Of a stretch of DNA of 64,000 nucleotides, positions 6,476 to 56,412 are shown piece by piece (within the stretch, counting starts at the first letter, position 1; every line of letters starts with the position of its first letter). The translations under genes and the position numbers were made by a program. The notes below the pieces were generated by a model. The model worked only from the letters and a program-made list of their open reading frames with translations. It had not been told where the DNA came from and searched no databases. Source of the stretch: Candidatus Moraniibacteriota bacterium (lineage in GTDB: Bacteria; Patescibacteriota; Minisyncoccia; Moranbacterales; UBA1568); NCBI GenBank assembly GCA_963743885.1, contig CAVURJ010000001.1, positions 438,321 to 502,320 of the forward strand, in the 5' to 3' direction.

Positions 6476-8086
6476 ATGATAAATAAAATTCGTATTGTTA
6501 ATTTTCGTTCGATACAAAATTTAGAGATTCACCCGCACAATCTTTGCGTATTGATAGGTCCAAATAGCTCTGGAAAAACAAACGTGCTGAAGGCGTTAGA
6601 TATTTTGCTTGGAGAGACATATCCAACTGAGCGAGCTTTTAGCAAGGATGATTTTTATGGGAGAAATTCAAATTTGGAAATTCTAATACAAGTGTGGTTT
6701 AAAGAGCCGCTTGAAGCTTGTAAATTGACATCTGTAGCTACAAGGAGAAAGGAGCAGTGTTTGATATCGAGCTTGAGACTCACACATACTAAGAATGATA
6801 ACGAATTTTTTCAGACAAAATTTATTGCTATTGACGTTGATGGAAATGAGTACTGGGCGTCTGGAGATGTTAGAGAAAAAGTGAATTTCATATATATACC
6901 ATCCGAGAGGAATTTAGAGAAGCAAATGTCGGTCAGTCAATGGTCTTTGTTGGGGAGAATACTCCGTAAGATTGATGAGAATTTCAGAAAAAATAGCCTT
7001 GGAGACGGCCCTAGTGAGATGGAGGAGGATTTTAGAGAGTCCATGAGTGAGCCGAAGAGAATTCTTGAAGCGGAATTGCCGAATGGCATGTTGAGTTATG
7101 CGAAATTTAAGCAGGTATTTACGGGTATTTGTAAGGAAAATGCAAATGGGTTAGCGAATGATTTTGACCTTGATTTGGAAATTTATGACCCGCTGTTTTA
7201 TTATAAGACGATTCAGCTGCTTGGGAGAGAGGAGATGGGGACCTTTAACATCCATGAGCTTGGGTCGGGGGTGCAAAACCTGGTGTTATTATCGCTGTTT
7301 AGGACTTATGCAAAATTAATGAAGAACAAAGCTGTTCTGGCTATCGAAGAGCCGGAAATCTATTTATATCCACAGGCGCAGAGGCAGCTTTATTCGAACT
7401 TTATTGGCATGGCGTATCCAGAATCTGGTAGTCAGGATGGAACCCAAATAATTTATACGACTCACAATCCAAACTTTGTAGATGCCACTAGGGCGAATGA
7501 GGTTGAAATTCTTCAGAAAAGCGCTTCAAGAGGGACTTGTTTGCTTCCAAAGAGTGAGTATGTAACATCGGAGAGGTCTGAGCAGGATAGGTTTAAGACG
7601 TATGCTCATTTTAATACTGAGAGGAACGAGATATTCTTTGCAAAGAAAGTGCTTCTGGTTGAAGGGGACTCTGACAAGATTATGTGGTCGACTCTTCTTG
7701 GTGAAAAATGGGAAATCCTTATAAATAAAGAAGGTATATCTATTATTGAATGCGGAGGGAAAACCGGAGTTCTGTATTTTATTGGCGTGTGCAGATTTAT
7801 GGGGATAGATTATTTCGCTATATGGGACGCAGATAATGGAGATGATGAGGTTAATGATAGACACGGGCTTTTTAGTGCGACTATCAGTGAAGGAAGGGGA
7901 TTGGAAATTCCTGGTAACCTCGAACAATTTCTATCAAGTAAATTCGATGCAGTTAGTTACCCGCAATTTGTATTTTCACAAAGCAATAAGATTGAACATG
8001 CTTTTGAGTGGGCTAACTCAGTTAATATTTCGGATATCCCAGAAGAATTTCTTTCTATTAAAAATTTTTTCATGTTGGCGGACTGA
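6476..8086 (+). CDS. OLD-family ATP-dependent endonuclease (N-terminal ABC-type ATPase plus C-terminal TOPRIM)
   Basis: Walker A LIGPNSSGKTN; Walker B-like LAIEEPEIYLYPQAQ; TOPRIM signature LLVEGDSDKIMW...IIECGGKTGV. Confidence 0.85.
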   Translation: MINKIRIVNFRSIQNLEIHPHNLCVLIGPNSSGKTNVLKALDILLGETYPTERAFSKDDFYGRNSNLEILIQVWFKEPLEACKLTSVATRRKEQCLISSLRLTHTKNDNEFFQTKFIAIDVDGNEYWASGDVREKVNFIYIPSERNLEKQMSVSQWSLLGRILRKIDENFRKNSLGDGPSEMEEDFRESMSEPKRILEAELPNGMLSYAKFKQVFTGICKENANGLANDFDLDLEIYDPLFYYKTIQLLGREEMGTFNIHELGSGVQNLVLLSLFRTYAKLMKNKAVLAIEEPEIYLYPQAQRQLYSNFIGMAYPESGSQDGTQIIYTTHNPNFVDATRANEVEILQKSASRGTCLLPKSEYVTSERSEQDRFKTYAHFNTERNEIFFAKKVLLVEGDSDKIMWSTLLGEKWEILINKEGISIIECGGKTGVLYFIGVCRFMGIDYFAIWDADNGDDEVNDRHGLFSATISEGRGLEIPGNLEQFLSSKFDAVSYPQFVFSQSNKIEHAFEWANSVNISDIPEEFLSIKNFFMLAD

Positions 8087-10094: not shown

Positions 10095-10152
10095 AAGGAC
10101 TAACCGCAAAAGATTTATCTGCCGTAAGGTAGATTTCGATTCTATATTGTTT
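10095..10152. repeat. 58-bp direct repeat, copy 1 (AAGGACTAACCGCAAAAGATTTATCTGCCGtAAGGTAGATTTCGATTCTATATTGTTT)
   Basis: Identical except one T/C to 16819-16876; ORF-track entries 9952..10170 and 16667..16885 share the peptide NRKRFICRKVDFDSILF only because they translate this repeat. Confidence 0.85.
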
Positions 10153-15894: not shown

Positions 15895-16827
15895 ATGCTC
15901 TGTCAAAATTGCGGAAGCGAAAACTCGAATGAGGCCAAGTTCTGCAAGAATTGCGGAAATCAATTTGGTAATGAGCAATTAAAAAATATCACACAGAAAA
16001 CAAGCGTGTTTTTTAAGAACGATAAAAAAATCGTTATTTGGATATTGGTTATTGTTGGCTTGTTTTTGGCTGCTGGAATCAGTTGGGGTATGTTCTTAAC
16101 ATCTCGTTCTAATTCAAATAATTCAATTGTCACAAATTTATTTGATTCACAAAAAGATACAAACACTGAAACCTTTTTTGAAAAAGCCTCTGAACTAACA
16201 AATTTGTTTAGTACCTGCGCAACAATGACATCAGGTCAAAGCTGTACTTTTGGTGGTCTCACTTATGGTGCAGTCAAGGCGGAAGACGGGAGAATATGGT
16301 TGGACAGAAATCTTGGTGCAACACGAGTGGCCAAAAAATCTGAAGATAAAGAGGCGTATGGTTGGTATTTTCAATGGGGGCGTGCTGCTGATGGTCATCA
16401 GATTCCAACAAGCGGAGCCACGGATAAGCTTAGCACAACCGATACCCCGAATCACGACAAGTTTATTGAGAGTGGCTATCCTTATAATTGGCGCAGTACG
16501 GAGAATGATAATCTTTGGCAAGAAGTAGGTGGGATTAATAATCCATGCCCTGGAGGATGGCGGGTACCAACAGCAAGCGAATGTAAAAAATTATTTTCCT
16601 CTGCTAATATTACCAACTCTTCAACAGCCTTCAGCTCATCATTGAAATTACCTTGGGCTGGATTCCGTGTATTTGCTGATATGTTTTATTATAGTTTTGG
16701 CGGATTCTGGTCTAGTAATTTTTCTGGTGACCAGGCTTACGTTGCGGGCTTTGATTTATCCAAGGCAGCTTATGATAGCCGCCAATGGCCCGTCAGAGGG
16801 TGGCCAGTTCGTTGTATTAAGGACTAA
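15895..16827 (+). CDS. zinc-ribbon-anchored membrane protein with a Fib_succ_major ectodomain
   Basis: MLCQNCGSENSNEAKFCKNCG plus TM; C-terminal ...GRIWLDRNLGA...PCPGGWRVPT...WPVRCIKD. Confidence 0.65.
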   Translation: MLCQNCGSENSNEAKFCKNCGNQFGNEQLKNITQKTSVFFKNDKKIVIWILVIVGLFLAAGISWGMFLTSRSNSNNSIVTNLFDSQKDTNTETFFEKASELTNLFSTCATMTSGQSCTFGGLTYGAVKAEDGRIWLDRNLGATRVAKKSEDKEAYGWYFQWGRAADGHQIPTSGATDKLSTTDTPNHDKFIESGYPYNWRSTENDNLWQEVGGINNPCPGGWRVPTASECKKLFSSANITNSSTAFSSSLKLPWAGFRVFADMFYYSFGGFWSSNFSGDQAYVAGFDLSKAAYDSRQWPVRGWPVRCIKD

Positions 16828-16876
16828 CCGCAAAAGATTTATCTGCCGCAAGGTAGATTTCGATTCTATATTGTTT
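16819..16876. repeat. 58-bp direct repeat, copy 2; overlaps the last codons of gene 15895..16827 and marks the low-GC/high-GC boundary
   Basis: 57/58 identity with 10095-10152; followed by nested palindromes at 16882-16925 and a perfect 18-bp palindrome at 16970-16987. Confidence 0.85.
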
Positions 16877-17478: not shown

Positions 17479-17548
17479 AGAGACGATGAACATCGACAAG
17501 TCGGTCCGTTTCCTGAATGGGGAGCGGACCTTTTTCTTTCCAAAGAAA

Positions 17549-17600
17549 AAGCCGCCCGGTTCCTAGTGGAAGGGGCGGCGTGCTCCGCGTTGCGGAGGCT
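17549..17600 (-). terminator. bipartite two-hairpin terminator module (copy 1) serving the minus-strand gene 17604..18047
   Basis: GCCGCCCGGTTCCTAGTGGAAGGGGCGGC plus CTCCGCGTTGCGGAG; on the minus strand followed by T-run; near-identical copy at 18166-18217. Confidence 0.55.
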
Positions 17601-17603
17601 TGA

Positions 17604-18047: not shown

Positions 18048-18165
18048 GGCGAACCTCCAAATGGAAAAGGACTGCGGATAAAAACCTATTTACAACCATA
18101 ACCGTACATTATACACCTTTTTTAGTGTTCTGTCAATCATGAAAAAGAGCTTAGGAAAAAGAAAA

Positions 18166-18217
18166 GCCGCCCGGTTCCTAGTGGATGGGCGGCGTGCTCC
18201 GTGTTGCGGAGTCAGAC
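18166..18217 (-). terminator. bipartite two-hairpin terminator module (copy 2) after gene 18250..18517
   Basis: Same hairpin sequence as 17549-17600 with 2 substitutions. Confidence 0.55.
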
Positions 18218-19604: not shown

Positions 19605-19757
19605 ATGAAGCCTCCTTTCTTGCTGGTTGTGAAAAAGCCCATTTGAAAACCATTCTATTATACACCTTTTCATATGTTTTGTCAATCGTCGATATATGGC
19701 TTTCTTGAGGTGAAAAATCACATCTTGAAGTGATGGTCGGCGCCAATCCGGCCGGAT

Positions 19758-31169: not shown

Positions 31170-31243
31170 GCGCTCGTAGCTCAGTGGATTAGAGCATCTG
31201 GCTTCGAACCAGAGGGTCGGGGGTTCGATCCCCTCCGAGCGCA
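31170..31243 (+). tRNA. tRNA-Arg (anticodon TCG)
   Basis: Manual fold: acceptor GCGCTCG/CGAGCGC; D-arm TAGCTCAGTGGATTAGAGCA; anticodon loop CTTCGAA; T-arm GGGGGTTCGATCCCCTC; discriminator A; no encoded CCA. Confidence 0.85.
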
Positions 31244-31281
31244 CAATCGACGAAGGAGATTTGCCTCGGAGCAAGCCAACT
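31231..31281. repeat. 51-bp direct repeat copy 1 (tRNA-Arg 3' 13 nt plus 38 nt of trailer)
   Basis: Identical to 31410-31460; contains the hairpin GCCAACTGCTTGGC motif at its end. Confidence 0.8.
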
Positions 31282-31409
31282 GCTTGGCTTGCGCAGGGGA
31301 TCGAAAGCCGGAACGCTGCACGAGTTTCCGCCAGAGGCGGAAGGCGAGTGCCGTGAGGCGGGGTCGCGAAATTTTTCCGTCAGGAAAAATATTCGTGACC
31401 GATCCGCAT

Positions 31410-31460
31410 CCCTCCGAGCGCACAATCGACGAAGGAGATTTGCCTCGGAGCAAGCCAACT
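31410..31460. repeat. 51-bp direct repeat copy 2 (displaced tRNA-Arg 3' end plus trailer), followed by a 20-nt palindrome insertion
   Basis: Exact copy of 31231-31281; a third partial copy (CCGAGCGCACAAT) lies at 31532-31544. Confidence 0.8.
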
Positions 31461-31480
31461 CCTGCCTGCCGGTAGGCAGG
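31461..31480. repeat. 20-nt palindrome CCTGCCTGCCGGTAGGCAGG (member of a dispersed palindrome family)
   Basis: Related copies at 39802-39818, 50096-50115 (perfect palindrome) and 56181-56200 (reverse orientation). Confidence 0.7.
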
Positions 31481-31755
31481 GCTTGGCTTACGTATCTGAT
31501 TCCCTCTCACCTCGATTCGAGTCGAAGCGGGCCGAGCGCACAATTGACGAGTTTCTCATTTTTTGGTATCCTATGCGCATTGCTTAGTGAAAGCAATTTT
31601 TGTTGCATATCGCATACAAAATCGAGAGTGGATACCTGCCCGAACGTACCGTTCGGTACGGGCGGGGCTCAGTTGGTAGATCCGCCAGCTGGCGGACTCT
31701 CAAGCCAATGGTCGGCGACCGTTGGGGATAGAGTCTTCGGTTAAAGGATTCAGAT

Positions 31756-31831
31756 GGGTGTATAGCTCAGTTGGTAGAGCAGTGGCCTCTTAAGCCAACG
31801 GTCGCAGGTTCGAATCCTGCTACACCCACCA
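31756..31831 (+). tRNA. tRNA-Lys (anticodon CTT), CCA encoded
   Basis: GGGTGTA acceptor; D-arm TAGCTCAGTTGGTAGAGCA; anticodon loop CTCTTAA; T-arm GCAGGTTCGAATCCTGC; TACACCC-A-CCA. Confidence 0.85.
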
Positions 31832-31847
31832 GGAAGAGATTCGGTTT

Positions 31848-31919
31848 GCCCCGATAGCTTAATGGATAAAGCAGGACTCTTCTAAGGTCTTGATGGGGGT
31901 TCGATTCCCTCTCGGGGCA
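31848..31919 (+). tRNA. tRNA-Arg (anticodon TCT)
   Basis: GCCCCGA/TCGGGGC acceptor; anticodon loop CTTCTAA; T-arm GGGGGTTCGATTCCCTC. Confidence 0.8.
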
Positions 31920-32121
31920 CAAAAAGAGTACCTCGCAGTGGATACCCGCCCGACACGCTTGACGCGAGTCATGCGGGCGGGGAGCGGAGCCTTCTAAGCT
32001 ATTGGTCGTTGGTTCCCCGCCAGAATGACTCTGTCGGGCTGGGATTCCAACCCGGAGCACAAATAGCCCGATGAGAACCGATAGGGTTTTCCTTTTAGGG
32101 CACAGTCTTAGAACCTGCTGG

Positions 32122-40581: not shown

Positions 40582-41013
40582 TTACTGATCTTGACGATCA
40601 AGTTTTGCTGCAGCCTCCGGAGTGGAGACTGTTTTCCCCATCATGAGCAGCTTGATGATGCCCCAGGCGACGACGTAGTAGACGAACAGAGCGAGGATCG
40701 TGGTCCATTCGAAGACGCTGCCTTGTGCCCGAGACGTCTGGAACACGGCGACGAACGGCGCGACTAGCGGCGCAGTCACCATGTAGATGAAATCGGTAAA
40801 ACCGGCACCAGTGTTGGCGCCGAGAAGTTTCAAGACGAGACGGAAAGCGAGCAAGACTTCGACGAGACCGAGGATATACCAGACGATCTGCGTGCCACGA
40901 TAGAGAGGCTGTGTGCTACCGGATGATTGAGCATCCATAGAGTTAAAATTAATAATTACAGGCGTTGTTCCGAAGAACGAGGTAGAACCATACGCGTATG
41001 TAATTATTACCAA
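40582..41013 (-). CDS. YggT-family membrane protein (start uncertain: TTG at 41013 or ATG at 40938)
   Basis: YggT-like segment GFTDFIYMVTAPLVAPF and two TM helices. Confidence 0.55.
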   Translation of the reverse strand: MVIITYAYGSTSFFGTTPVIINFNSMDAQSSGSTQPLYRGTQIVWYILGLVEVLLAFRLVLKLLGANTGAGFTDFIYMVTAPLVAPFVAVFQTSRAQGSVFEWTTILALFVYYVVAWGIIKLLMMGKTVSTPEAAAKLDRQDQ

Positions 41014-41557
41014 ACGTAGCGAGCGAAATGAGAGTTTGCTTTCATTTCCGAGCGCAGTGCTGGTAAAATCGGGCCAATACCTCGCGGTTTACCGCTGAGG
41101 GATTGAGTCCAGGGCTGGCCCTGGGTTTAATGCCCGTTATCAATTTTCACTCTTCCTATCGTTGCTATCTTTACTTTCAGTATACTCTCTTTGGCTTGGA
41201 ATAGCGAATGAACTATATTCGCTGATTAGAGGGGAAAATGGTGAGAAAAAATAGAAAGGGGAGTCACCGGATGTTGTCCGATAACTCCCCACCGTACTGC
41301 ACAGACCACAATCGCACACAGCGCTTTTTCCACGGATATTTTTTGGAATCGGCAGTTTTCAATCGTAGGGGATCCTATTTCAAGGGCGGCTCCACACTGC
41401 CCGGAAGCAGGTTTCATAGCCTCGGACCTATCCAGTGCACCTGCGATCTAGTGTTTGACCAGCCACGGAGAGTCGAACTCCGCGTGTTGCCCACAACTGT
41501 TGTTTTGGTCTGCAGGGGAGATGTTAGGATAGAAGTCATTCCTTGTCAATCAGCTAC

Positions 41558-41585
41558 TTGCTTTTCGGCGGATTCCTGCTATAAT
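41558..41585 (+). promoter_or_regulatory. sigma-70-type promoter (TTGCTT-N16-TATAAT) about 100 nt upstream of tRNA-Glu
   Basis: Perfect -10 TATAAT and 4/6 -35 with 16-nt spacing. Confidence 0.5.
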
Positions 41586-41683
41586 GCCTCCGCAGATGAC
41601 TTCTGCTTTTTTCTTTGTTTCAGCTCCATATCTTCACTTGGTTTTTGTGATTTGGAGATTGTAACTTGCGCGTCGCGCGCCAT

Positions 41684-41755
41684 GGCCCCATCGTCTATCG
41701 GTTAGGACAGCGGCTTTTCAAGCCGTTAAGAGGGGTTCGACTCCCCTTGGGGCTA
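41684..41755 (+). tRNA. tRNA-Glu (anticodon TTC)
   Basis: Acceptor GGCCCCA/TGGGGCT (G1-U72 wobble); anticodon stem-loop GCGGC-TTTTCAA-GCCGT; T-arm AGGGGTTCGACTCCCCT. Confidence 0.8.
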
Positions 41756-41972
41756 CATGTACCAACAAAAAGCACTCTCGTTCAGAGGGTGTTTTTTTGT
41801 TGGTATTTCTATCCAAGGGGAGTCGAACGGGCAGGAGTGAGCCCTTTCGCGAAGGCGAAACTGGCGAGTGTCGACGGATGCGCGCGAGCAAGCATTCGGC
41901 GCTGCCCAGGGCAACGAAGTCGTCAGCAGACGACGAGGCGGAACTCCCCTTGGCCGAAGTCCAATCTTGATG

Positions 41973-42524
41973 TTATCTGATATCGGAAAGGCAGTTACTA
42001 AACTTTTCTGCATTAAAAGTATAGAATCCGATTGTTAAAATTTCTTTGTCGGTATCAATTGTATGAATATAAAGTCTGTCGTGCAGTAAGAGTGGATAAT
42101 CAGAATTGTTAAGTGTGATCATGAAAAGACTACCATGATATTTTTTTAGATAAGCGGAAATATAACAATCTACCCGACTGACTTGCTTGAGTTGTTTGTT
42201 TGAATATATATTTGATATTTCGATAGCACCTTCAAGGATGTTGCTATCGATTGGCATCGTAAATCCAGAAAGCGCATCAAGAAAATTTGTTTTCGTTTCT
42301 ATTTGAGATTTTGTCTGACATCCTCTCAAGAATTCAAACTTTATAAATTCATTGATTATTGGAACGCAATTGAAATCTTGAAGCAAAGAAAAGAGCCCAT
42401 CAAAATGTTGAGTATCAACGTATTGATGAGCTTTTGCTATAAAGCAAGTATCAAGCAGAACATGTTTGCGATCGATCGCTTCTCCTAATTGTTCCCTGGT
42501 CATCATAACAGGAATGATGTTCAT
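41973..42524 (-). CDS. PIN-domain protein (VapC-like toxin nuclease candidate)
   Basis: Four acidic positions in PIN order: VLLDTCFIA ... INEFIKFE ... RVDCYISAY ... ITLNNSDYP; sits in an AT-rich islet (about 41990-42700) next to tRNA-Glu. Confidence 0.6.
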   Translation of the reverse strand: MNIIPVMMTREQLGEAIDRKHVLLDTCFIAKAHQYVDTQHFDGLFSLLQDFNCVPIINEFIKFEFLRGCQTKSQIETKTNFLDALSGFTMPIDSNILEGAIEISNIYSNKQLKQVSRVDCYISAYLKKYHGSLFMITLNNSDYPLLLHDRLYIHTIDTDKEILTIGFYTFNAEKFSNCLSDIR

Positions 42525-42687
42525 TACGACCTATTGCTTCGGCATCAGCAACGTTAATGGCTCTTGCCAATGTTCGTAAGTGATCAAGATCCCATGTATA
42601 AGACGAGGCCTTACTTTTTGTCGGGGCCTGTTTTTTCTGTGGCTGATGAGAGTTTTCCATAAACCTTTCTTTCTTCAAGAATAGCAC
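42451..42687 (-). CDS. small upstream ORF, possible cognate antitoxin (overlaps the PIN gene start by about 70 nt in another frame)
   Basis: 78-aa ORF; no recognisable fold; the overlap geometry is unusual, so it may be spurious or the toxin start may be further downstream. Confidence 0.25.
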   Translation of the reverse strand: MLFLKKERFMENSHQPQKKQAPTKSKASSYTWDLDHLRTLARAINVADAEAIGRNEHHSCYDDQGTIRRSDRSQTCSA

Positions 42688-42821
42688 AAATTATTCCTCC
42701 ATTCCACTTTTCTCCGCTACCGTGCCGTACGTGAGCGCGCTCCGCCGGATGATGTAGCTTGACTTTCCCATTACCAGAGCGTAAGCTGGGATTTCCTTTT
42801 TCCTTACCAACGAGGTGCGAG

Positions 42822-43187
42822 ATGAAAGAAAGCGAAGGAGTGCCGGTCTTTTCGATTCCTCTAGCTCTTTGGCTAGGGTGTTGTCCGGATGGGAGCCATT
42901 ACCGTCCTGTCGAAAATGGGGACTTGCGGGTAGGGCAGAGGATCCTGAAGGTGGAGATACCGCTCAATACGAACGTTTCGGGATCGATGGGGAATCACCC
43001 GGATGTCCTGACCGTCGCCAAGGTGGCCGAGTATGACCAGGAAGTGGTCTGTAGGGGCACCGATGGCGAGGAGACTTTTCCGATCGCCCGGATGATTGCT
43101 GGGAACATCGTATTCTTCGAACATCCGCTTTGGGGGTCGAAGTGGCGGAGAGGTATCGTCGGGACCGCCTTCATCGTCGAGCGCTGA
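42822..43187 (+). CDS. hypothetical protein
   Basis: GAGGTG 5 nt upstream of the ATG; no similarity recognised. Confidence 0.35.
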   Translation: MKESEGVPVFSIPLALWLGCCPDGSHYRPVENGDLRVGQRILKVEIPLNTNVSGSMGNHPDVLTVAKVAEYDQEVVCRGTDGEETFPIARMIAGNIVFFEHPLWGSKWRRGIVGTAFIVER

Positions 43188-43203
43188 TCAACGCATCGTC
43201 CAG

Positions 43204-43356
43204 CAGGGTTTCGGAATCATCCGGACCCTGTTTTTTTGTCCAAAAGAAGCCATTTTTTGACTCTGGACAAAAGCATGAAAAAGTGCTATACTGCACGGTC
43301 AAGTGAGATTGTACTCGCTGACAAGTTCCCCGAAGCCAACCTACAGGAGGTTTGTC
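43204..43356 (+). promoter_or_regulatory. regulatory cassette copy 1: terminator hairpin, then IR operator TTGTCCA-N21-TGGACAA overlapping the -35, then promoter TGGACA-N17-TATACT (43264-43292), then leader hairpin and AGGAGG
   Basis: Near-identical cassettes at 45151-45301 and 45785-45911. Confidence 0.65.
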
Positions 43357-43641
43357 ATGAAAACGTTTCAGTCTCAGCCGTCTTTGGTCCGGATCATCTT
43401 TGGTGTCCTCTTCGCTATCATCGGTATCTGCGCCATCATGACGAGCATTAGTCTGGAAGCGACGGCTCTCCTCATCTGGGAGATCCTGGAACCGACGACT
43501 ATTTACAATGCTCGCCAGCTGGCAGAGGACAAGGCATTCGCGACAAGCTATGCCATCGCAGGCGGCTTTCTGTTTCTGATCAGCCTCTTTGCTGGTTACA
43601 TCGCTTACCGCCTGCTCAAGACCAACAAAAAGAGCGGGTAG
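43357..43641 (+). CDS. small two-TM membrane protein
   Basis: CAGGAGG, 7-nt spacer, ATG; 94 aa. Confidence 0.55.
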   Translation: MKTFQSQPSLVRIIFGVLFAIIGICAIMTSISLEATALLIWEILEPTTIYNARQLAEDKAFATSYAIAGGFLFLISLFAGYIAYRLLKTNKKSG

Positions 43642-43868
43642 CGCCAGAGCAGCCGCGTCTGTTCGTCGGGCCTCATCGTAACCACGGTGGGGCTTTTTTG
43701 TTTTTTATGGTGTATAATAAAAAGGTAATTTGTAGCCTTTATAGTATGGATACTAGTCAGCCTCAAGCGGATAAAATCAAAGCAGAGGTAGATGAAATCT
43801 TAGTGGAACTCGATCAAGAGTTGAAAGAGTTGGATGAAAAAGAAGGGAATAATTAACCATATATTGTT

Positions 43869-44441
43869 ATGGGATTCGAATCATTTCCACAACCAACGCC
43901 GAAAAGCGAGCAAGAGAAGAAACGTGGAGGGCTTTCCGATGAAGAGCGCGACAAGATTTTTATAGATGTTCGGGCAAGCGAAGAAAGAAGAGCGCGATCA
44001 GGCAAGCCTCTCTCATCTGAACGAGCAGATTTGTTCAGCCGTTTTTCGGAAAAGCTGAGAGGAAAAGCGGCTGCATACGCTGCGGCTTTCGCATTGGCTG
44101 GGGCGGGAGTGGCCTATGGTATTTCCCAGTACGAAAGTGGGGATACGGAAAAGGTTGATGGCGGACAAACAGCAGAGCAGGTAGTCAAGGATCTGCAGCA
44201 GCAAGACGCTCAATCGGGCTTGGAGAGTGAAGCTCCGGAACAGAAATGGCGCCGACATTTCGGAGCTATGAGCGATAGTCAACCAGAAGAGGTAAGACTA
44301 TATCACTTGGAACAAGCGAAAGCAGCCGCCAATGACATGGTTGCGATTGAAAAGGCCGATGGAGATAATGCTCTTTTGGCTATTAGGTCTTATGAGCGAA
44401 TGCATGATCTTGAGAGGAAGATGAAAGGCGTTACAGAGTAG
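43869..44441 (+). CDS. hypothetical protein (lower-GC islet)
   Basis: 190-aa ORF; charged, Ala-rich central hydrophobic segment. Confidence 0.5.
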   Translation: MGFESFPQPTPKSEQEKKRGGLSDEERDKIFIDVRASEERRARSGKPLSSERADLFSRFSEKLRGKAAAYAAAFALAGAGVAYGISQYESGDTEKVDGGQTAEQVVKDLQQQDAQSGLESEAPEQKWRRHFGAMSDSQPEEVRLYHLEQAKAAANDMVAIEKADGDNALLAIRSYERMHDLERKMKGVTE

Positions 44442-44458
44442 CATTTTTACTTTTTTCT

Positions 44459-45094
44459 ATGAGCTTTGAAACACCTTCAATATCGGTTCAGGACAATAAG
44501 GGGAAAGAAAAGAAAAAGCAATTGAGTGGCGCTGTGGCCGGGGCTCTGCTTTCTGTGGGAATGATGGCTGGTCAGGCTGTTGAAGCGCAGGCAGCTCCAG
44601 ATCAGGAAAGACATGAGCAAATGGAGCAGGTTGCCTCTGGCGTGCTCTCACACAGTAATGAAGCATTTATTGTGGCTTTGAAAAAGGGAAGTTCTCTGCT
44701 TCAAACGGAGTTCCAAAAGGGAATGCAGGATAGAGGAAGCTATTCTTGCGATGATGTCACCATCCAGGTAGGAGGCGAGGCGTTCACTTGCCAAAGCATG
44801 AAGCTATCGAGCAGTTGCGGTGTCCCTTATGGCGAAGTCAAGATAGAAAAAGGGGAGAGGATGATTATTCTCTCTTTCTATAAGCCCGGGCCATGCAAAA
44901 ACGGAGCGATACCGGAGGATATCGAAGGGAAAAAGGCGTTTCATTACTACATGGATTCGAAGTATGAAGAAGTCCGTGGGCCAATCGCTTGGAGTTGGGA
45001 TGTGAATGGCGTTAAGAAGCTTGCTGGAGCGGAAGGAGTTTTTCCTCTCGACGGTGTCCAATTGAAGGGGGTACTGGAGAAATATGGAAAATAA
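44459..45094 (+). CDS. hypothetical secreted/membrane-anchored protein
   Basis: 211 aa; N-terminal hydrophobic LSGAVAGALLSVGMMAGQAVEAQA. Confidence 0.5.
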   Translation: MSFETPSISVQDNKGKEKKKQLSGAVAGALLSVGMMAGQAVEAQAAPDQERHEQMEQVASGVLSHSNEAFIVALKKGSSLLQTEFQKGMQDRGSYSCDDVTIQVGGEAFTCQSMKLSSSCGVPYGEVKIEKGERMIILSFYKPGPCKNGAIPEDIEGKKAFHYYMDSKYEEVRGPIAWSWDVNGVKKLAGAEGVFPLDGVQLKGVLEKYGK

Positions 45095-45150
45095 CCGGCG
45101 TGAACTTTAAAGTAAGTCTCTGGTCTGATCCATATTTGATTGCGCTGGAG

Positions 45151-45301
45151 CAGGGTTTCGGAATCATCCGGACCCTGTTTTTTTATCTTGAAGAAGCCAT
45201 CTTTCGACCCTGGACAAAACAGGAAAAGTATGCTATACTGTACGGTCAGGTGAGATTGTACTCGCTGACAAGTTTTGAAGTCAACCTACAGGAGGTTCAC
45301 C
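45151..45301 (+). promoter_or_regulatory. regulatory cassette copy 2 (terminator hairpin, IR operator, promoter TGGACA-N17-TATACT at 45211-45239, leader hairpin, AGGAGG)
   Basis: About 90% identical to copy 1 over about 150 nt. Confidence 0.65.
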
Positions 45302-45688
45302 ATGAAGTCCTTTTTCATCGCAGTTGCCATGTTGTTTGCCGCCTCCGTCGTGAATGCCGAACCTGCAAAGCCGGCCTATTGTTCCGGTAGCGCGTCGATC
45401 CTCAAGTCGGTGATCGACAAGGCTGGCGATTACAACATCGATGACGGCACGCATCAGCGCGAATACATCGCTCTTTGCGAGAAGGCGACGGCCAAGTTGC
45501 CGGTTGCCCAGCAGAAGGCTGTGTACGATGCAGTCACCAGCAAGAAGGTGCGGTTCCAGAATCCGTTCAAGGACGAGATCATGAAGTATCTCGACGTGTT
45601 TACCACGCTGCACAACGCTTGCCTTCCGTGTGGCGGCGGTTATCCGTGCTATGCGCCGGTGACCATCATCGAGAAGGTGAAACCCTGA
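45302..45688 (+). CDS. small secreted Cys-containing protein (128 aa)
   Basis: Signal peptide MKSFFIAVAMLFAASVVNA; followed by a conserved 3' module and terminator at 45692-45747. Confidence 0.55.
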   Translation: MKSFFIAVAMLFAASVVNAEPAKPAYCSGSASILKSVIDKAGDYNIDDGTHQREYIALCEKATAKLPVAQQKAVYDAVTSKKVRFQNPFKDEIMKYLDVFTTLHNACLPCGGGYPCYAPVTIIEKVKP

Positions 45689-45784
45689 TTTCGCCAAGGC
45701 CGCTCCAACATGAGCTATTACGACCTGCCTAACAAGAGGTCGTTTTTCTTTTTTTCAAAACTATACCTCTAGCACGTTATCGAG

Positions 45785-45911
45785 CAGGGCTTCGGAAGTT
45801 TCCGGACCCTGTTTTTTTGTCCAAAAGACGCCATCTTTCGACCCTGGACAAAACGTCAGAAATATGCTATCATATAGGGTCCAATTCGGACGTTCTCAAC
45901 AGGAGAATCTC
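45785..45911 (+). promoter_or_regulatory. regulatory cassette copy 3 (terminator hairpin, IR operator, promoter TGGACA-N17-TATCAT at 45845-45873, AGGAGA)
   Basis: Same architecture; the leader differs from copies 1 and 2. Confidence 0.6.
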
Positions 45912-46112
45912 GTGGTAACACGTGTCAGGAAGGTTTCTGGTTCTTCGCGGCAACTCGCGGAATCGCCCTCCGAAGGTACCTACCGAGGTTTCGGAACGGT
46001 TCCCGGCGAGACCATCGATCAATTCCATGATCGGATGTTCGACATCAATCCGCTCGAGGCGATGATGTACGAACTCGAAGTGGGACTTGAACAATCCCTG
46101 CGCACCAACTAA
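45912..46112 (+). CDS. small hypothetical protein (66 aa, GTG start)
   Basis: AGGAGA, 5-nt spacer, GTG; followed by the same conserved 3' module/terminator (46115-46170) as gene 45302..45688. Confidence 0.45.
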   Translation: MVTRVRKVSGSSRQLAESPSEGTYRGFGTVPGETIDQFHDRMFDINPLEAMMYELEVGLEQSLRTN

Positions 46113-46182
46113 ACGCCAAGGCTGCTCCAACAGGAGCTACAACGACCCGCCTAACAAGAGGTCGTTTTTCTTTTGCGAATTT

Positions 46183-47433
46183 TTATACTTCCAGCGTATT
46201 GGTCTCCGCTACCTTCCCATACTCGAACGCACTCGGGCGGATGGTACGGGTTTGGGTAGCGTAGTCGACATGGACGAGACCGAAGCGGAGCCAGAATCCA
46301 TGGGCGAGTTCGAGATTGTCAAGGAGTGACCAGTAGAAGTAACCACGCACGTCGACCCCGGCCTCTATGGCGCGGTGGAGGGCGGTGAGTGCTTCGGGGA
46401 TGAAACGCTGTCGCATCTCATCGGACGCGTCCGCGATGCCGTTTTCTGTGATGTAGATCGGTTTGCCGTAGCGGGTGAGCTCGACTAGGGCATGATAAAG
46501 CGACTCGGGATGATACTCCCAGCCGAAGTCGGTCTGTTCTTTGTTCGGATTTTTGTTGAAGCCGTTGTCGATGACATTTCTATTGTAGTGATTGAGGCCG
46601 ATGAAGTCCTGGTGGTCCTTGATGCGGTTGATGAAGAATGAATTCCAGCCCCAGTCGGCGAGCGCCTTGAGAAGATGATTGATGAAGGTTGGTCGGGCCA
46701 TTTCGAAGTAGATCTGATGTTTGGCGATGCCGACCTGCGCTCCTGGGAAACGCTGTTTGATGGCTGTGTAGGCGAGACGATGGGCAGCGGCGAGACGGAA
46801 GAGCGAGAGGAGAAAGAGCCGCGGGCATTTCTCCTGTGGCGGCCAGGCACCCTTGAGGTAGGCATATCCAGCATGAATATCTGGTTCATTGAGCGTAACC
46901 CAGAAGGTGACTTCGAATCCGAATTCCTCAGCCATTTTTTTTGCGTATCGTGCAAAGTATTCTGGGAATTTTTTTGATGTGATACCTCCTTCTTTTGCGA
47001 GCCATTGTGGGATATAGAAGTGAAGTAGCGTGACGAATGGTTCCATACCGTGTTCACGGAGTGCATGGATCACTTCGCGATAATGCTCTATTTCTTTCTC
47101 ATCCCATTTGCCTTCTTCTGGTTCTATCCGAGACCACTCGATGGAGAAACGATGGGCGTTGTGATGAAGTTTTTTTGCAATGTCAAAATCCTCACGGAAG
47201 CGGTTATAGTGATCGCATGCAATGCCGGCGATGTAGTTTTTCGGATTGGTAGCCTCTTGCTCGAATTTTTTCCAATTTGGGTTCCACCAAAAAATATTCT
47301 TGGAGTTTTTTGCGCGCGCATCTGCCGTCCGGGGTTCCCACTCACCCCAGTCGTTTTTTGTATTGCCTTCGACTTGGTGAGATGAGGTGCCAGCGCCCCA
47401 GTAGAAGTTTTTCGGAAAGTTGAGCTGGGACAT
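46183..47433 (-). CDS. GH1-family beta-glucosidase
   Basis: N-terminal FPKNFYWGAGTSSHQVEG; catalytic acid/base TLNEP and nucleophile YITENG motifs; about 416 aa. Confidence 0.9.
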   Translation of the reverse strand: MSQLNFPKNFYWGAGTSSHQVEGNTKNDWGEWEPRTADARAKNSKNIFWWNPNWKKFEQEATNPKNYIAGIACDHYNRFREDFDIAKKLHHNAHRFSIEWSRIEPEEGKWDEKEIEHYREVIHALREHGMEPFVTLLHFYIPQWLAKEGGITSKKFPEYFARYAKKMAEEFGFEVTFWVTLNEPDIHAGYAYLKGAWPPQEKCPRLFLLSLFRLAAAHRLAYTAIKQRFPGAQVGIAKHQIYFEMARPTFINHLLKALADWGWNSFFINRIKDHQDFIGLNHYNRNVIDNGFNKNPNKEQTDFGWEYHPESLYHALVELTRYGKPIYITENGIADASDEMRQRFIPEALTALHRAIEAGVDVRGYFYWSLLDNLELAHGFWLRFGLVHVDYATQTRTIRPSAFEYGKVAETNTLEV

Positions 47434-50676: not shown

Positions 50677-50767
50677 GATGAGCTCCTTGGGTTGTTGGAT
50701 GAACTGGATTATTTGTATCAGAAATGGCTTATTTATGCAACTATCCTGTATTTACCACCTTTTGACC

Positions 50768-50798
50768 CTTTACAAAACCGATAAAAGGGTGTATAATG
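50768..50798 (+). promoter_or_regulatory. strong sigma-70 promoter TTTACA-N17-TGtATAAT (extended -10)
   Basis: Consensus -10 with upstream TG and 17-nt spacer; drives gene 50859..51230. Confidence 0.55.
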
Positions 50799-50858
50799 TA
50801 TTGTTTAGTTCTTTAAGTGTGAAGTTTTGTCCAACGTTTTTTCTCGAGGGAGAGAAAG

Positions 50859-51230
50859 ATGGAAATGCTGCAAATCGAAGTGGTCCGCGTCCTGGGTAAC
50901 GGTCGTCAGATCGTGCGTCAACAAGTGATTGACGTGCCGGCTAAGAAGTACCAGTCTGACGCGTTGTATCCGCCGTATCCGATCGTTCGGCGCCAGCGTT
51001 CTGCTCAGTCGTTGCATCGTTTGAACGAAAAGTCGTTGTGCGGCAACTCCGGCTATGTTCTTCATACGACTGTCGCATCGAAGCGCATCCAGCCGATGAG
51101 TCCGGAGTACTACGACAGGCAGCAGCATACCCTCTCCAGGCAGTATCAGAAGTCTGATGCACAGCGGGGGAAGGAGCAGCGCAAGCGGGTCCATAAGCCG
51201 GACTACCGGCACGTGGATGTCTACCACTGA
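50859..51230 (+). CDS. hypothetical basic protein (123 aa)
   Basis: GAGGGAGAG RBS; R/K/Q/Y-rich sequence. Confidence 0.5.
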   Translation: MEMLQIEVVRVLGNGRQIVRQQVIDVPAKKYQSDALYPPYPIVRRQRSAQSLHRLNEKSLCGNSGYVLHTTVASKRIQPMSPEYYDRQQHTLSRQYQKSDAQRGKEQRKRVHKPDYRHVDVYH

Positions 51231-51324
51231 TCGGTAGGCAAGCGGCAAAGAAGGGGTTTGTCTGGAATACAGATGAACCCCTTTAAAATTCCCTAAATCC
51301 TCCCATATTATTTTTTTCTTTACG

Positions 51325-51362
51325 TATCACTATAATTGTGCGGTCGTCATAAAATAGTGATA
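51325..51362. repeat. 38-bp direct repeat copy 1 with internal 9-bp inverted repeat (TATCACTAT-N20-ATAGTGATA)
   Basis: Identical copy at 52054-52091; the two copies flank the PaaX-like gene. Confidence 0.8.
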
Positions 51363-51438
51363 TACTGAAAACGTAAAAATAACGTAAAAATAGAGAAAAT
51401 AAAAAATATAACGGTGCTAATGATATATACAACGATGT

Positions 51439-52032
51439 ATGAACAAGAAAAAAACAGCATCTCAGAAAACGGCAAGACTGGAAAAGATCAATCTTCAGGG
51501 TATTGTTCTTGGGGCGGTGGGATTAGCTGGTGTGATGGCAATCGCACTTGCTGCGCCGAACGCTCTTCAGGCAATCAAGGTATTTCGTAATTTCGGCGAT
51601 GCGAAGGTGAGAACCCGGTATCGATATTCGGTAAATACGACAATTAGACGTCTTCAGAAGAAGGGACTGATTGCTGTTGAACAGCATGGTGGAAAACCAT
51701 GCTACCGTCTGACAGAGCGGGGAGCTCTCGAGCTTGTCCGATATAAGATGAAAGAGAAGACGATTACGCGGCGACGTTGGGATGGAAAGTGGCGTGTTGT
51801 TATTTTTGATGTAAAAGAAGACCAGCGTACTATTCGAAACCGGATCCGGACGATGCTTTTTGAATTCGGTTTTGTCCGCCTACAGGATAGTGTCTGGGTG
51901 TCGCCGTATGAATGTGAAGAAGTGATCCAGCTTTTGAAAGCGAAATGTCGGATCGGTAAGGATGTGCTCTATATCACCGCTGAGAAAATCGAACAGGACG
52001 GTTTTTTGCGGAAGCACTTTGATCTGAAATAG
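51439..52032 (+). CDS. PaaX-like transcriptional regulator (Cas2-like fold C-terminal domain) with an N-terminal TM segment
   Basis: WDGKWRVVIFDVKEDQRTIRNRIRTMLFEFGFVRLQDSVWVSPYE matches the PaaX_C pattern (W.g.W..v.fdv......R......L...G...lq.SVwvsP). Confidence 0.6.
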   Translation: MNKKKTASQKTARLEKINLQGIVLGAVGLAGVMAIALAAPNALQAIKVFRNFGDAKVRTRYRYSVNTTIRRLQKKGLIAVEQHGGKPCYRLTERGALELVRYKMKEKTITRRRWDGKWRVVIFDVKEDQRTIRNRIRTMLFEFGFVRLQDSVWVSPYECEEVIQLLKAKCRIGKDVLYITAEKIEQDGFLRKHFDLK

Positions 52033-52053
52033 CATTTTTTTTGTTTTATTGCA

Positions 52054-52091
52054 TATCACTATAATTGTGCGGTCGTCATAAAATAGTGATA
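52054..52091. repeat. 38-bp direct repeat copy 2 (TATCACTATAATTGTGCGGTCGTCATAAAATAGTGATA)
   Basis: Exact copy of 51325-51362. Confidence 0.8.
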
Positions 52092-52190
52092 CGTTGGTAA
52101 TAAAAAATTAGGGAGATTGAGAAGGATAAAAGGACAAGAAGGGGAAAATAAGGAGAAAAAATACGGACAGAGAATATAGGGAGAAGGTGG

Positions 52191-55933: not shown

Positions 55934-56005
55934 GCGCTCGTCGTATAACGGATAAGACATCTCCCTCCGAAGGAGAAAACGCAGGTTCGACTCCTGCCGA
56001 GCGCA
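55934..56005 (+). tRNA. tRNA-Arg (anticodon CCG)
   Basis: Acceptor GCGCTCG/CGAGCGC; anticodon stem-loop TCTCC-CTCCGAA-GGAGA; T-arm GCAGGTTCGACTCCTGC; D-stem has one mismatch. Confidence 0.75.
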
Positions 56006-56180
56006 CAAAGTAAGTGAGGAGCATGCCAACTGCTTGGCATGCGCCAGGAGGAGAAAGTCGGAGCCCTGTCCGCGATAGCGGACGGCGAGACGGGGTCGAG
56101 AGGCTGTGAAAGCAGAACTCGTGACCGATTCCTGCCGAGCACACATGAACGAAGTGAATGGGCCGAGGAGCGAGTAAACT

Positions 56181-56200
56181 CTTGCCTACCGGCAGGCAGG
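56181..56200. repeat. 20-nt palindrome CTTGCCTACCGGCAGGCAGG (reverse-orientation member of the family) embedded in a longer dyad CGAGTAAA...TTTACTCG
   Basis: 19/20 match to the reverse complement of 31461-31480. Confidence 0.7.
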
Positions 56201-56322
56201 GCTTTACTCGCGCCAAGGAGGAGAACGCCGGAGTGATATTTCGTCAGAAGACGAAATCGCGAGGCGCTGCTCAGACAAGCCTTTGTGTCGACAAAAGCTT
56301 AGTCGAGGGAGACTCCTGCTCG

Positions 56323-56352
56323 CCTCGATTCGAGTCGAAGCGGGCCGAGCGC
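56323..56352. repeat. 30-nt element CCTCGATTCGAGTCGAAGCGGGCCGAGCGC, identical to 31510-31539, ending in the Arg-tRNA acceptor 3' sequence
   Basis: Exact 30/30 match between the trailers of tRNA-Arg(TCG) and tRNA-Arg(CCG). Confidence 0.8.
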
Positions 56353-56412
56353 GCAAAGTAAGCGAAGAAAAAAAGACTTCCCCGCATAGGGAAGTCTTTT
56401 TTGTAAACGATG

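Follow-up and report, generated by a model that had tools for sequence, protein, structure and literature searches.

Why should three small genes that have nothing in common be preceded by the same piece of intergenic DNA? This question is raised by a locus in a 64-kb stretch (the window) of a Ca. Moraniibacteriota (CPR) chromosome, for which an initial annotation proposed three copies of a composite cassette of terminator, operator, promoter and leader. Three direct copies of this 5' module do exist (43202-43327, 45149-45274 and 45783-45908), and with 0 matches in 100 shuffles the number expected by chance is nil. We explain the repeats as paralogous DNA copies of one composite intergenic module that would have been placed, in tandem, before three unrelated small genes, a reading to which we assign a probability of roughly 0.6. 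The earlier observation as a whole is partly confirmed and its interpretation, which included a common regulator and a gene-cassette system, is partly supported.

The 5' module has a size of about 100-155 nt. Over 126 nt, 87% of copy 2 and 70% of copy 3 are identical to copy 1, and the longest gapless stretches with at least 80% identity comprise 137 nt (copies 1 and 2), 103 nt (copies 2 and 3) and 92 nt (copies 1 and 3), all of them located between about -155 and -30 relative to the start codons. The left edge of the similarity is sharp, beginning within 3 nt of AGCAGGG, and the flanks directly outside the copies are unrelated (5-6 of 25 positions identical). The right edge varies; it is the ATG in copies 1 and 2 and lies about 10 nt past the -10 element in copy 3. 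All three copies found in the 64 kb share one orientation and one locus. Divergence is uneven, since the hairpin is identical at 36 of 36 positions and the leader at 27 of 28, compared with about 60-70% identity in the spacer between -35 and -10; this would fit old copies under purifying selection, and a shared regulator would give the same pattern. Furthermore, variant sites are shared in blocks (copies 1 and 2, 1 and 3, 2 and 3, then again 1 and 2), and this mosaic is only suggestive of exchange between the copies (runs test, p = 0.005; p = 0.18 once adjacent sites count as single events).

Table 1. Predicted features of the array and its surroundings in the window.
Feature	Positions	Strand	Basis or remark
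tRNA-Glu(UUC)	41684..41756	+	ARAGORN and Rfam; left anchor of variable hot spot
Strain-specific 4.4 kb island, tRNA-Glu to GH1	41757..46182		blastn synteny; contains the entire cassette array
GH1 3'-end remnant, 20 codons (IIRRSALTYGTVAEKSGMEE*)	42691..42751	-	direct repeat of the true GH1 end at 46183-46243
ORF-U, 121 aa	42822..43187	+	ATG after GAGGTG; own, different promoter-like site; no Pfam family
Copy 1 terminator	43204..43237	+	bulged 11-bp hairpin and T7; motif scan, fold
Copy 1 inverted repeat TTGTCCA-N21-TGGACAA	43236..43270	+	A/T-rich upstream block; right arm overlaps -35
Copy 1 promoter TGGACA, 17 nt, TG-n-TATACT	43264..43292	+	motif scan
Copy 1 5'UTR	43293..43356	+	stem-loop GTCAAGTGAG..CTCGCTGAC, then AGGAGG partly in small hairpin
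ORF1, 94 aa	43357..43641	+	two-segment membrane protein; no relatives found
ORF1 terminator	43668..43700	+	begins CGCCA just past the stop codon
Nested insert, lower GC	43700..45148	+	composition; own TATAAT promoter; three ORFs (36, 190, 211 aa)
Copy 2 terminator	45151..45184	+	hairpin and T7; identical to copy 1 over 36 nt
Copy 2 promoter TGGACA, 17 nt, TG-n-TATACT	45211..45239	+	motif scan
Copy 2 5'UTR	45240..45301	+	27/28 identical to copy 1 across the stem-loop; same AGGAGG
ORF2, 128 aa	45302..45688	+	signal peptide and several cysteines; one true homologue (P0012)
3' module copy A	45692..45752	+	GCTC-CAACAT-GAGC hairpin, then CGACCT..AGGTCG terminator and T5
Copy 3 terminator	45785..45818	+	hairpin and T7; redundant with 3' module terminator about 35 nt upstream
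Copy 3 inverted repeat TTGTCCA-N21-TGGACAA	45817..45851	+	pattern search
Copy 3 promoter TGGACA, 17 nt, TG-n-TATCAT	45845..45873	+	motif scan
ORF3, 66 aa	45912..46112	+	GTG start after AGGAGA; small conserved family
3' module copy B	46114..46174	+	second copy, after ORF3
Intact GH1 beta-glucosidase gene	46183..47433	-	Pfam PF00232; right anchor of hot spot
Related promoter (CCACCTTTTGACCCTTTACAAAAC...TGTATAATGTA)	50735..50809	+	drives 123-aa gene without Pfam family at 50859-51230
Related promoter (AAGCCATATATCGACGATTGACAAAAC...TGTATAAT)	19651..19717	-	drives 80-aa putative secreted protein
Related promoter	18097..18169	-	directly after terminator; drives 147-aa membrane-anchored protein

Most of the annotated parts could be recovered in each copy. 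The hairpin CAGGG(T/C)TTCGGA-loop-TCCGGACCCTG followed by T7 is present in all three; it folds with -18 kcal/mol (z = -3.8), and differences between the copies are confined to the bulge and the loop. Likewise, TGGACA, the 17-nt spacer and TATACT or TATCAT recur in each copy, supplemented by the TG of an extended -10, and each promoter matches the sigma-70 consensus at 10 of 12 positions in addition to this TG. Judged from these motifs, each copy combines an intrinsic terminator with a downstream promoter of the sigma-70 type that has an extended -10. Two other elements had been ascribed to every copy and occur in only two. The inverted repeat TTGTCCA-N21-TGGACAA is intact in copies 1 and 3, where perfect 9-nt arms (TTTTGTCCA and TGGACAAAA) are improbable by chance, but the left arm of copy 2 is degenerate (TTATCTT, 3 of 7 positions changed). 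The leader hairpin and AGGAGG belong to copies 1 and 2, which have the entire 5'UTR up to the ATG in common and in which AGGAGG is partly paired in a small hairpin, whereas copy 3 diverges about 10 nt after the -10, lacks both elements and uses AGGAGA and GTG instead of AGGAGG and ATG.

The genes behind these copies, with 94, 128 and 66 aa, were annotated as unrelated, and an all-against-all blastp bears this out, since no pair scored better than E about 1. A word-indexed protein search returned no relatives of ORF1 and ORF2. In a full HMMER search one true homologue of ORF2 was found (P0012), which adjoins yggT and a tRNA-Glu gene and lies behind a related promoter; the other matches are large repeat proteins, which we discount as spurious, since their scores add up over numerous stretches and the Pfam matches are incoherent. 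The ORF3 family shares the motif YRGFGTVPGET-DQFHDRMF. In three other contigs its members are equipped with promoters and terminators of their own that differ from those here, hence the module was not inherited together with ORF3. The 35-nt repeats flanking one of these homologues (in L082) were considered as kin of the module and rejected; they proved to be an intergenic repeat belonging to that genome itself, with no link to the window in nhmmer. AlphaFold models of ORF3 (pLDDT 59) and ORF2 (pLDDT 41) were of too low quality to support a fold search.

The 3' module, which had been described as an about 80-nt element common to units 2 and 3, is indeed shared (92% identity), but its length is 61 nt, and it sets in 1-3 nt past the stop codon. 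The terminator of ORF1 may be a much-diverged third version. Between ORF2 and ORF3 two terminators stand in series, the 3' module and the hairpin of copy 3. Redundancy of this kind is what one would expect of a module transferred in one piece. Moreover, a second, independent pair of shared 3' modules was found after unrelated genes at 17.5 and 18.2 kb, which means that module reuse recurs in this genome. A CAAC-loop hairpin is conserved in the 3' modules, with different stems in the 17.5/18.2 kb pair; a genome-wide 3' motif of CAAC-loop hairpin plus terminator was rejected, with 25 such hairpins observed in the window vs 27.9 expected.

The promoter core is more widely used than the complete module. 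Within the window it forms a family of six, the three copies and three other sites, and all six precede small genes without a Pfam family. The promoter at 50735..50809 is conserved in the relative L001, and a few members of the family are carried by relatives.

Regarding the genomic context, blastn synteny with 80 related Moraniibacteriota loci places the array in a strain-specific island at a hot spot, because the distance from tRNA-Glu to the 3' end of GH1 is 4427 nt here vs 74-1591 nt in 34 relatives. The island is missing from these 34 relatives sharing synteny, its ORFs were not found in any of the 80 loci, and neither the 5' nor the 3' modules occur in 1.17 Mb of related loci; when 80-87 related loci were searched with the modules by blastn and nhmmer, all matches were due to chance or to the promoter core. 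The exact pattern of hairpin and -35 (GGACCCTGTTTTT-N25-45-TGGACAAAA) had no match in GTDB species genomes, JGI metagenomes or IMG/VR. The island also contains a remnant of the GH1 end, 70% identical to the true end over 61 nt in a repeat search, whose translation matches the GH1 C-termini of relatives; the two GH1-end repeats bracket ORF-U, which would be terminated by the hairpin of copy 1, and the three units. The GC content of units 1-3 is genome-like, and a compositionally foreign look is limited to the nested insert at 43700-45148. An independent Logan contig of 1971 nt is bounded by copies 1 and 2 and spans this insert, and the Logan contigs of run ERR12035942, an independent assembly, stop exactly at copies 1 and 2; these ends are suggestive of real repeats rather than an assembly artefact. 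Phage and plasmid blastn searches of the island gave no match, viral relatives were not found, and none of the island proteins scored above threshold in scans with Pfam, PHROGs or PADLOC; the four marginal PHROGs matches (E 0.02-0.08) all belong to families of unknown function.

Taken together as a copied module, the parts would act in sequence. The 11-bp bulged hairpin and T7 should end transcription arriving from the upstream gene, and about 27 nt further on the A/T-rich block with its near-consensus, extended -10 promoter of the sigma-70 type would restart strong transcription. The 5' stem-loop of the mRNA should shield it against 5'-end-dependent decay, the strong Shine-Dalgarno sequence would drive translation, and the transcripts of units 2 and 3 are predicted to end at the shared two-hairpin 3' module. 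Each gene would thus become an insulated, self-sufficient monocistronic unit. The module would have spread by being copied as a block, via ectopic homologous or illegitimate recombination, rather than arising through convergent selection that acts on a binding site for a transcription factor. Probably the founder was the ORF2 unit, because its sole homologue elsewhere adjoins tRNA-Glu behind a related promoter.

The shared block next to the promoter had been taken as an operator through which one regulator controls all three genes. According to this reading, the block upstream of and overlapping the -35 would bind one DNA-binding regulator, perhaps also at the other three members of the promoter family, and the identity of the copies would be kept by selection for binding, which is compatible with an origin by copying. 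The perfect inverted repeat in copies 1 and 3, for which 0 matches are expected in shuffles, argues for it, as do the stronger conservation of functional elements compared to the spacer and the block CCAYCTTTYGAC(CC)T beside the -35, which recurs at 50755 and 19700 before other small Pfam-less genes. However, the same operator is not found at every member promoter: it is intact in two of the three copies, its left arm being lost in copy 2, and it is absent from the other three family promoters. Its right arm is simply the -35 of a promoter type that these three sites share. Measured between their centres, the half-sites are separated by 28 bp and hence lie on different helix faces. Looking for a TetR- or XRE-type gene with the same operator, as had been suggested, revealed none nearby; the only regulator candidate within 10 kb is a PaaX-like gene with a different palindrome, and the repeat occurs nowhere else, and not at any regulator gene, in the window or in 1.17 Mb of related loci. 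Furthermore, selection on a binding site cannot account for the identity of the terminator hairpin at 36 of 36 positions including the loop, nor for the shared 5'UTR and 3' modules. We regard a common regulator as rather unlikely, and the reuse of the module, as predicted here, is no evidence for a shared repressor.

A side effect of copying would be that flanks of 90-137 nt with at least 80% identity become substrates for homologous recombination, which could delete, duplicate or swap units, like the PeSL (promoter-early stem-loop) cassettes of T4-like phages (Arbiol et al., 2010, PMC2839356; Comeau et al., 2014, PMC4122927). It could then be that a PeSL-like cassette system, independent of a recombinase, operates in this cellular CPR chromosome with the modules as its functional elements. 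Homologous exchange among the 5' and among the 3' modules would take up, express, replace and discard small orphan genes at a hot spot linked to a tRNA gene, a proposal that we consider doubtful. Both systems are composites of a terminator stem-loop, a strong sigma-70-like promoter and an A/T-rich upstream block, in both each ORF is insulated, and in both the repeats provide homology for shuffling. In the array, too, the composite of promoter and terminator stem-loop fills the intergenic gap, and the ORFans beside it vary in presence among close relatives, the island being absent from related loci. In contrast to PeSL, however, the array lies in a cellular CPR chromosome and not in the hyperplastic region of a T4-like phage, with no phage genes or matches; only three copies exist in the 64-kb window; the stem-loop stands 27 nt before the promoter, whereas it overlaps the promoter in PeSL; and there is an extra shared 3' module. 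In PeSL, recombination between copies gives indels or mini-circles; in the array, an indirect mosaic of shared variants is seen (p = 0.005 or, with adjacent sites collapsed, 0.18).

Copying as a block also relates the module to other known classes. Putative mobile promoters (Matus-Garcia, Nijveen and van Passel, 2012) are, in the summary given in PMC3575422, defined by at least 80% identity over at least 50 nt, at -150 to -50 upstream of non-paralogous coding sequences in one genome. The 137, 103 and 92 nt shared by copies 1 and 2, 2 and 3, and 1 and 3 agree with this definition, as does the lack of similarity among ORF1-3 (blastp, none better than E about 1), and the repeat has no Rfam, tRNA, phage or plasmid match that would identify it as a known IS element, tRNA or Rfam RNA. 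This class is, however, purely operational, without a defined mechanism; the repeat studied here extends to a terminator, in two copies to the complete 5'UTR, and to a 3' module, and its copies are adjacent in one island instead of being dispersed. Phage 'morons', autonomous units of promoter, gene and terminator (PMC2839356), resemble the array as single genes with own promoter and terminator that are added between existing genes, but they lack shared conserved flanks and are defined in prophages, whereas the GC content of units 1-3 is genome-like.

Far less probable is a miniature non-autonomous transposable element of the Correia or MITE type, with an outward promoter and its transposase elsewhere in the genome. 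The sharp left boundary and the size of 100-155 nt, which is within the MITE range, would suit such an element, Correia elements carry promoters and terminators (as cited in PMC3575422), and the array shares with Correia, ERIC and REPIN sequences that short intergenic repeats bring transcription signals to neighbouring genes. But the only inverted repeats are internal (hairpin; TTGTCCA/TGGACAA), the ends of the module have none, and a target-site duplication is missing. Moreover, the right boundary is the ATG in copies 1 and 2 but lies about 10 nt past the -10 in copy 3, all copies have one orientation and one locus instead of being dispersed within the window, and no transposase is among the 25 families listed for the long ORFs of the window. 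We judge it similarly improbable that the leader and the 3' modules are cis-regulatory RNAs (riboswitch, thermometer or protein-binding UTR) conserved for that function. The leader hairpin with 27 of 28 identical positions in copies 1 and 2, the partly paired AGGAGG in both, and the CAAC-loop hairpin conserved in the 3' modules, also in the 17.5/18.2 kb pair, would be in line with this, but no Rfam family reached threshold for the modules, the leader folds are no more stable than shuffles (z = -1.2 and -0.35), copy 3 has no leader, CAAC-loop hairpins are not enriched in the window, and conservation begins in untranscribed DNA upstream of the promoter.

The likeness to a gene-cassette system drawn in the initial annotation holds for the conserved flanks around unrelated ORFs, the variable island and the self-contained units, but it does not extend to an integron-type site-specific system, in which the 3' module or the hairpin would be an attC-like site for an integrase. 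Integron cassettes are generally promoterless. Array and integron do have in common a single orientation, unrelated small ORFs and a conserved structured element that directly follows the stop codon, and GCCTAAC in the 3' module fits the inverse core RYYYAAC. However, neither a GTTRRRY partner nor a paired attC-type site was found on either strand of 43100-46300, and the attC hypothesis was rejected; no integrase appeared in Pfam scans of neighbouring genes or among 25 of 56 families listed (47 long ORFs), and in the regions scanned there was neither an adjacent IntI nor a promoterless cassette, every unit having its own promoter. We give this explanation hardly any credence. The chance that one gene was simply triplicated in place together with its flanking DNA, or that the assembly is at fault, is practically negligible. 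All three copies do lie close together, within 3 kb, but the homologous ORFs that the initial annotation had named as the sign of it are not there, ORF1-3 differing in length and type without similarity in blastp, the copies have diverged (87% and 70%), and an independent assembly breaks at the repeats.

The array, read as copies of one regulatory module, is clear but rather ordinary promoter reuse; with just three copies and sequence as its basis, it remains a tidy example rather than a new principle. CPR bacteria have tiny genomes and few regulators, and to our knowledge next to nothing is known of the way in which genes that they have newly acquired are expressed. Placing a terminator-promoter-leader block on unrelated genes would be a simple answer, by which newcomers are insulated and strongly expressed without new regulation, and the shared flanks would make such genes easily lost or exchanged. 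For this lineage, for which we know of no genetic tools, the module is a candidate set of strong promoter, terminator and 5'UTR. If a PeSL-like cassette system were indeed at work, the second pair of 3' modules and the six-member promoter family would point to a general route by which new small secreted and membrane proteins are brought into use.

Three small genes of the window (ORF1 to ORF3) are each preceded by a copy of the same 5' module, a terminator hairpin joined to a promoter, and these copies are direct repeats. With up to 3 mismatches allowed, hairpin and -35 block searches of the 64 kb returned exactly these three sites, and no match is expected in shuffled sequence. Every copy opens with CAGGG-(T/C)-TTCGGA-loop-TCCGGA-CCCTG and a T7 tract; the fold is at -18 kcal/mol (z = -3.8), and only bulge and loop vary among the copies. 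In all three, the promoter scan gave TGGACA, a 17-nt spacer, and TATACT or TATCAT with a TG extension. The initial annotation had assigned a leader hairpin and AGGAGG to each copy; in copies 1 and 2 the likeness indeed continues through a 5' stem-loop and AGGAGG as far as the ATG, but copy 3 diverges about 10 nt past the -10, lacks the shared leader and carries AGGAGA plus GTG instead. Its statement that the downstream genes are unrelated holds, as the proteins of 94, 128 and 66 aa show no mutual similarity.

Coordinates of module copies, promoter family sites and related repeats (window positions unless stated)
Feature	Position	Strand	Remarks
5' module copy 1	43202-43327	+	reference for identity values
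5' module copy 2	45149-45274	+	87% identity with copy 1, 126 nt
5' module copy 3	45783-45908	+	70% identity with copy 1, 126 nt
Further promoter family site	19718-19631	-	
Further promoter family site	50755-50806	+	
Further promoter family site	18174-18099	-	
Second 3' module pair	17541-17601 and 18152-18213	-	about 50 nt, about 94% identity
GH1 3'-end remnant	42691-42751	-	20 codons, 3.4 kb from the stop codon of the intact gene
True GH1 end	46183-46243	-	
Repeat GAGCTGGGGYTGTGGGACGAAGTTGGRAC in L082	2-59, 472-528, 1084-1121, 1515-1539		positions of the L082 contig

Reuse also concerns the 3' side. A 61-nt 3' module, present in two copies of 92% identity, starts 1-3 nt past the ORF2 and ORF3 stop codons; in its fold, a small hairpin comes first and a terminator hairpin with T5 second. 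A second pair of 3' modules, built of a CTCCG-CAAC(A/G)-CGGAG hairpin and a large-loop terminator, follows unrelated genes of 90 aa (at 18.2 kb) and 147 aa (at 17.5 kb), and one of the two directly precedes a promoter of the cassette family. Module reuse thus recurs in this genome. Between ORF2 and ORF3 two terminators stand in succession, a redundancy best explained by copying of the module as a block. Furthermore, the variants that two copies have in common are grouped into blocks along the module (1 and 2, 1 and 3, 2 and 3, then again 1 and 2), which hints at exchange between copies (runs test, p = 0.005, or 0.18 with adjacent sites merged).

The promoter itself belongs to a wider family. 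The profile built on the three copies also matches three further sites, and the joint profile has exactly six members in the window and a few matches in relatives (two in L001, the closest relative, and others in the related loci L010, L004 and L085). All six promoters precede small genes (66-147 aa) without a Pfam family, most of which encode a signal peptide or membrane segment. Shared by the family are an upstream block CCAYCTTTYGAC, a -35 with AAAC after it, an A-rich spacer that closes with TG, the -10 and GTAYGG; the specific hairpin with T7 and the near-identical flanks are confined to the three copies of the array. In L001, about 300 GC-rich nt (5570-5870) 3' of a family promoter contain only a 4-codon ORF and may represent a non-coding RNA; at the corresponding site the window has a PaaX-like insert. 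There, a 78-nt direct repeat (51304-51381 and 52033-52110, 79% identity) with the palindrome ATCACTAT-N24-ATAGTGAT lies on both sides of a PaaX/Cas2-like regulator gene (51439-52032), in a region that differs from L001.

Among the rival readings (ALTERNATIVES), a regulon survives best, in which a shared operator would place all three genes under one regulator, as had been proposed from an inverted repeat TTGTCCA-N21-TGGACAA in every copy. In its favour, copies 1 and 3 have perfect 9-nt arms and the functional elements are better conserved than the spacer, but the repeat is intact in these two copies only, the left arm being broken in copy 2. Moreover, the "right arm" is simply the -35 region of the promoter family, the other family promoters lack the inverted repeat, its half-sites lie 28 bp apart, and no regulator lies nearby, all of which weakens the one-regulator proposal. 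The remaining readings fare worse: an integron-type cassette array lacks integron-type sites, with no integrase found among the nearby genes; a MITE-type element lacks terminal inverted repeats and target duplications; a structured RNA is opposed by zero Rfam family matches and leader folds that are not unusually stable; and for a phage or plasmid origin no relatives were found.

The array lies in an island between tRNA-Glu and the GH1 gene. The proteins of the window map to a contig of 652,564 bp. A search with the neighbouring 565-aa glycosyltransferase yielded 80 loci, almost all under the label Candidatus Moraniibacteriota or Moranbacteria, and gene order is conserved on either side of the region. 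In the 34 relatives with both genes, tRNA-Glu and the GH1 3' end are separated by 74-1591 nt of varied content; in the window the gap measures 4427 nt (41757-46182), and neither the island ORFs nor the 5' and 3' modules were found in the related loci. Mosaic in structure, the island combines an inverted tRNA-Glu 3' fragment, a low-GC gene, a GH1 remnant, the 121-aa gene ORF-U, unit 1, a 1.4-kb insert of lower GC with its own promoter, and units 2 and 3. The GH1 remnant and the true GH1 end form a 61-nt direct repeat (70% identity) bracketing the array, the pattern that would be left by an element inserting in the 3' end of a gene with a replacement end; no integrase accompanies the bracketed segment. 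Independent Logan contigs of run ERR12035942, one spanning 43208-45178 and another starting at 45155, have their ends within copies 1 and 2, which is what true repeats would produce.

Several other observations concern tRNA genes and repeats. A GC-rich 140-nt element (41813-41953, minus strand), which begins and finishes with the tRNA-Glu 3' end in inverted copy, has a folding energy of -64 kcal/mol (z = -3.5) and is also conserved in the related loci L020 and L016; 28 of the 34 relatives have tRNA-Glu itself on the opposite strand. L020 has two extra tandem tRNA-Glu 3'-end fragments (GTTCGACTCCCCTTGG; 7540-7650) before a low-GC gene of about 330 aa, which looks like repeated integration at tRNA-Glu. 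Between yggT and tRNA-Glu, about 540 nt with few ORFs (41140-41680) contain on the minus strand a promoter-like site (41549-41521) and a strong 14-bp terminator (41290-41258), match no Rfam family and may encode an undescribed small RNA; L012 and L020 conserve the adjoining stretch 41004-41140 at different positions. Near two tRNA clusters (31222-31922, 55984-56356, also 58998), tRNA-Arg 3'-end fragments and neighbouring segments of 46-54 nt occur as repeats (80-98% identity), which may be further integration scars. Finally, a 58-nt direct repeat (10095-10152 and 16819-16876, 98% identity) brackets a 6.7-kb gene block encoding zinc-ribbon N-termini, BspA-type LRR, RCC1 repeats and Fib_succ_major domains.

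Homologues of the small genes show whether the flanks travel with them. ORF3 is a member of a small conserved family (motif YRGFGTVPGET-DQFHDRMF), whose homologues on three other contigs stand alone and differ in both promoter and terminator; hence, the module was not inherited with ORF3. In L082 (Logan SRR34292212), a contig with an ORF3 homologue, a 35-nt repeat fills every intergenic gap over 1.5 kb and represents a different intergenic repeat family of another uncultured genome. ORF2 has one convincing homologue, P0012 (52% identity over about 60 residues), whose gene directly follows yggT and tRNA-Glu, i.e. occupies the same hot spot, and is preceded by a terminator and a promoter matching the family profile (E = 0.004). 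Therefore, the ORF2 unit is the likely founder. The search for relatives of ORF1 found none.

From canonical motifs and established knowledge on intrinsic terminators, extended -10 promoters and mRNA stabilisation by 5' stem-loops, we infer that the hairpin with T7 would stop transcription arriving from upstream, the module promoter would start it anew, the 5' stem-loop and strong ribosome-binding site would yield high expression, and the 3' module would terminate the transcript. Transcripts would then start near 43299, 45246 and 45880 and stop at the T7 tracts (43237, 45184, 45818) and T5 tracts (45749, 46171). The array falls under the operational definition of a putative mobile promoter (PMC3575422). 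In anatomy and likely consequences, the closest known system is the PeSL cassettes found in T4-like phages (PMC2839356, PMC4122927), where motifs combining a terminator with a promoter flank orphan ORFs of variable regions and mediate shuffling. However, the array stands outside the PeSL family because it resides on a cellular chromosome and recombination within it is putative. The array is a well-defined and real instance of a regulatory module being reused, in an island of a CPR genome, and is of a kind that is already known.
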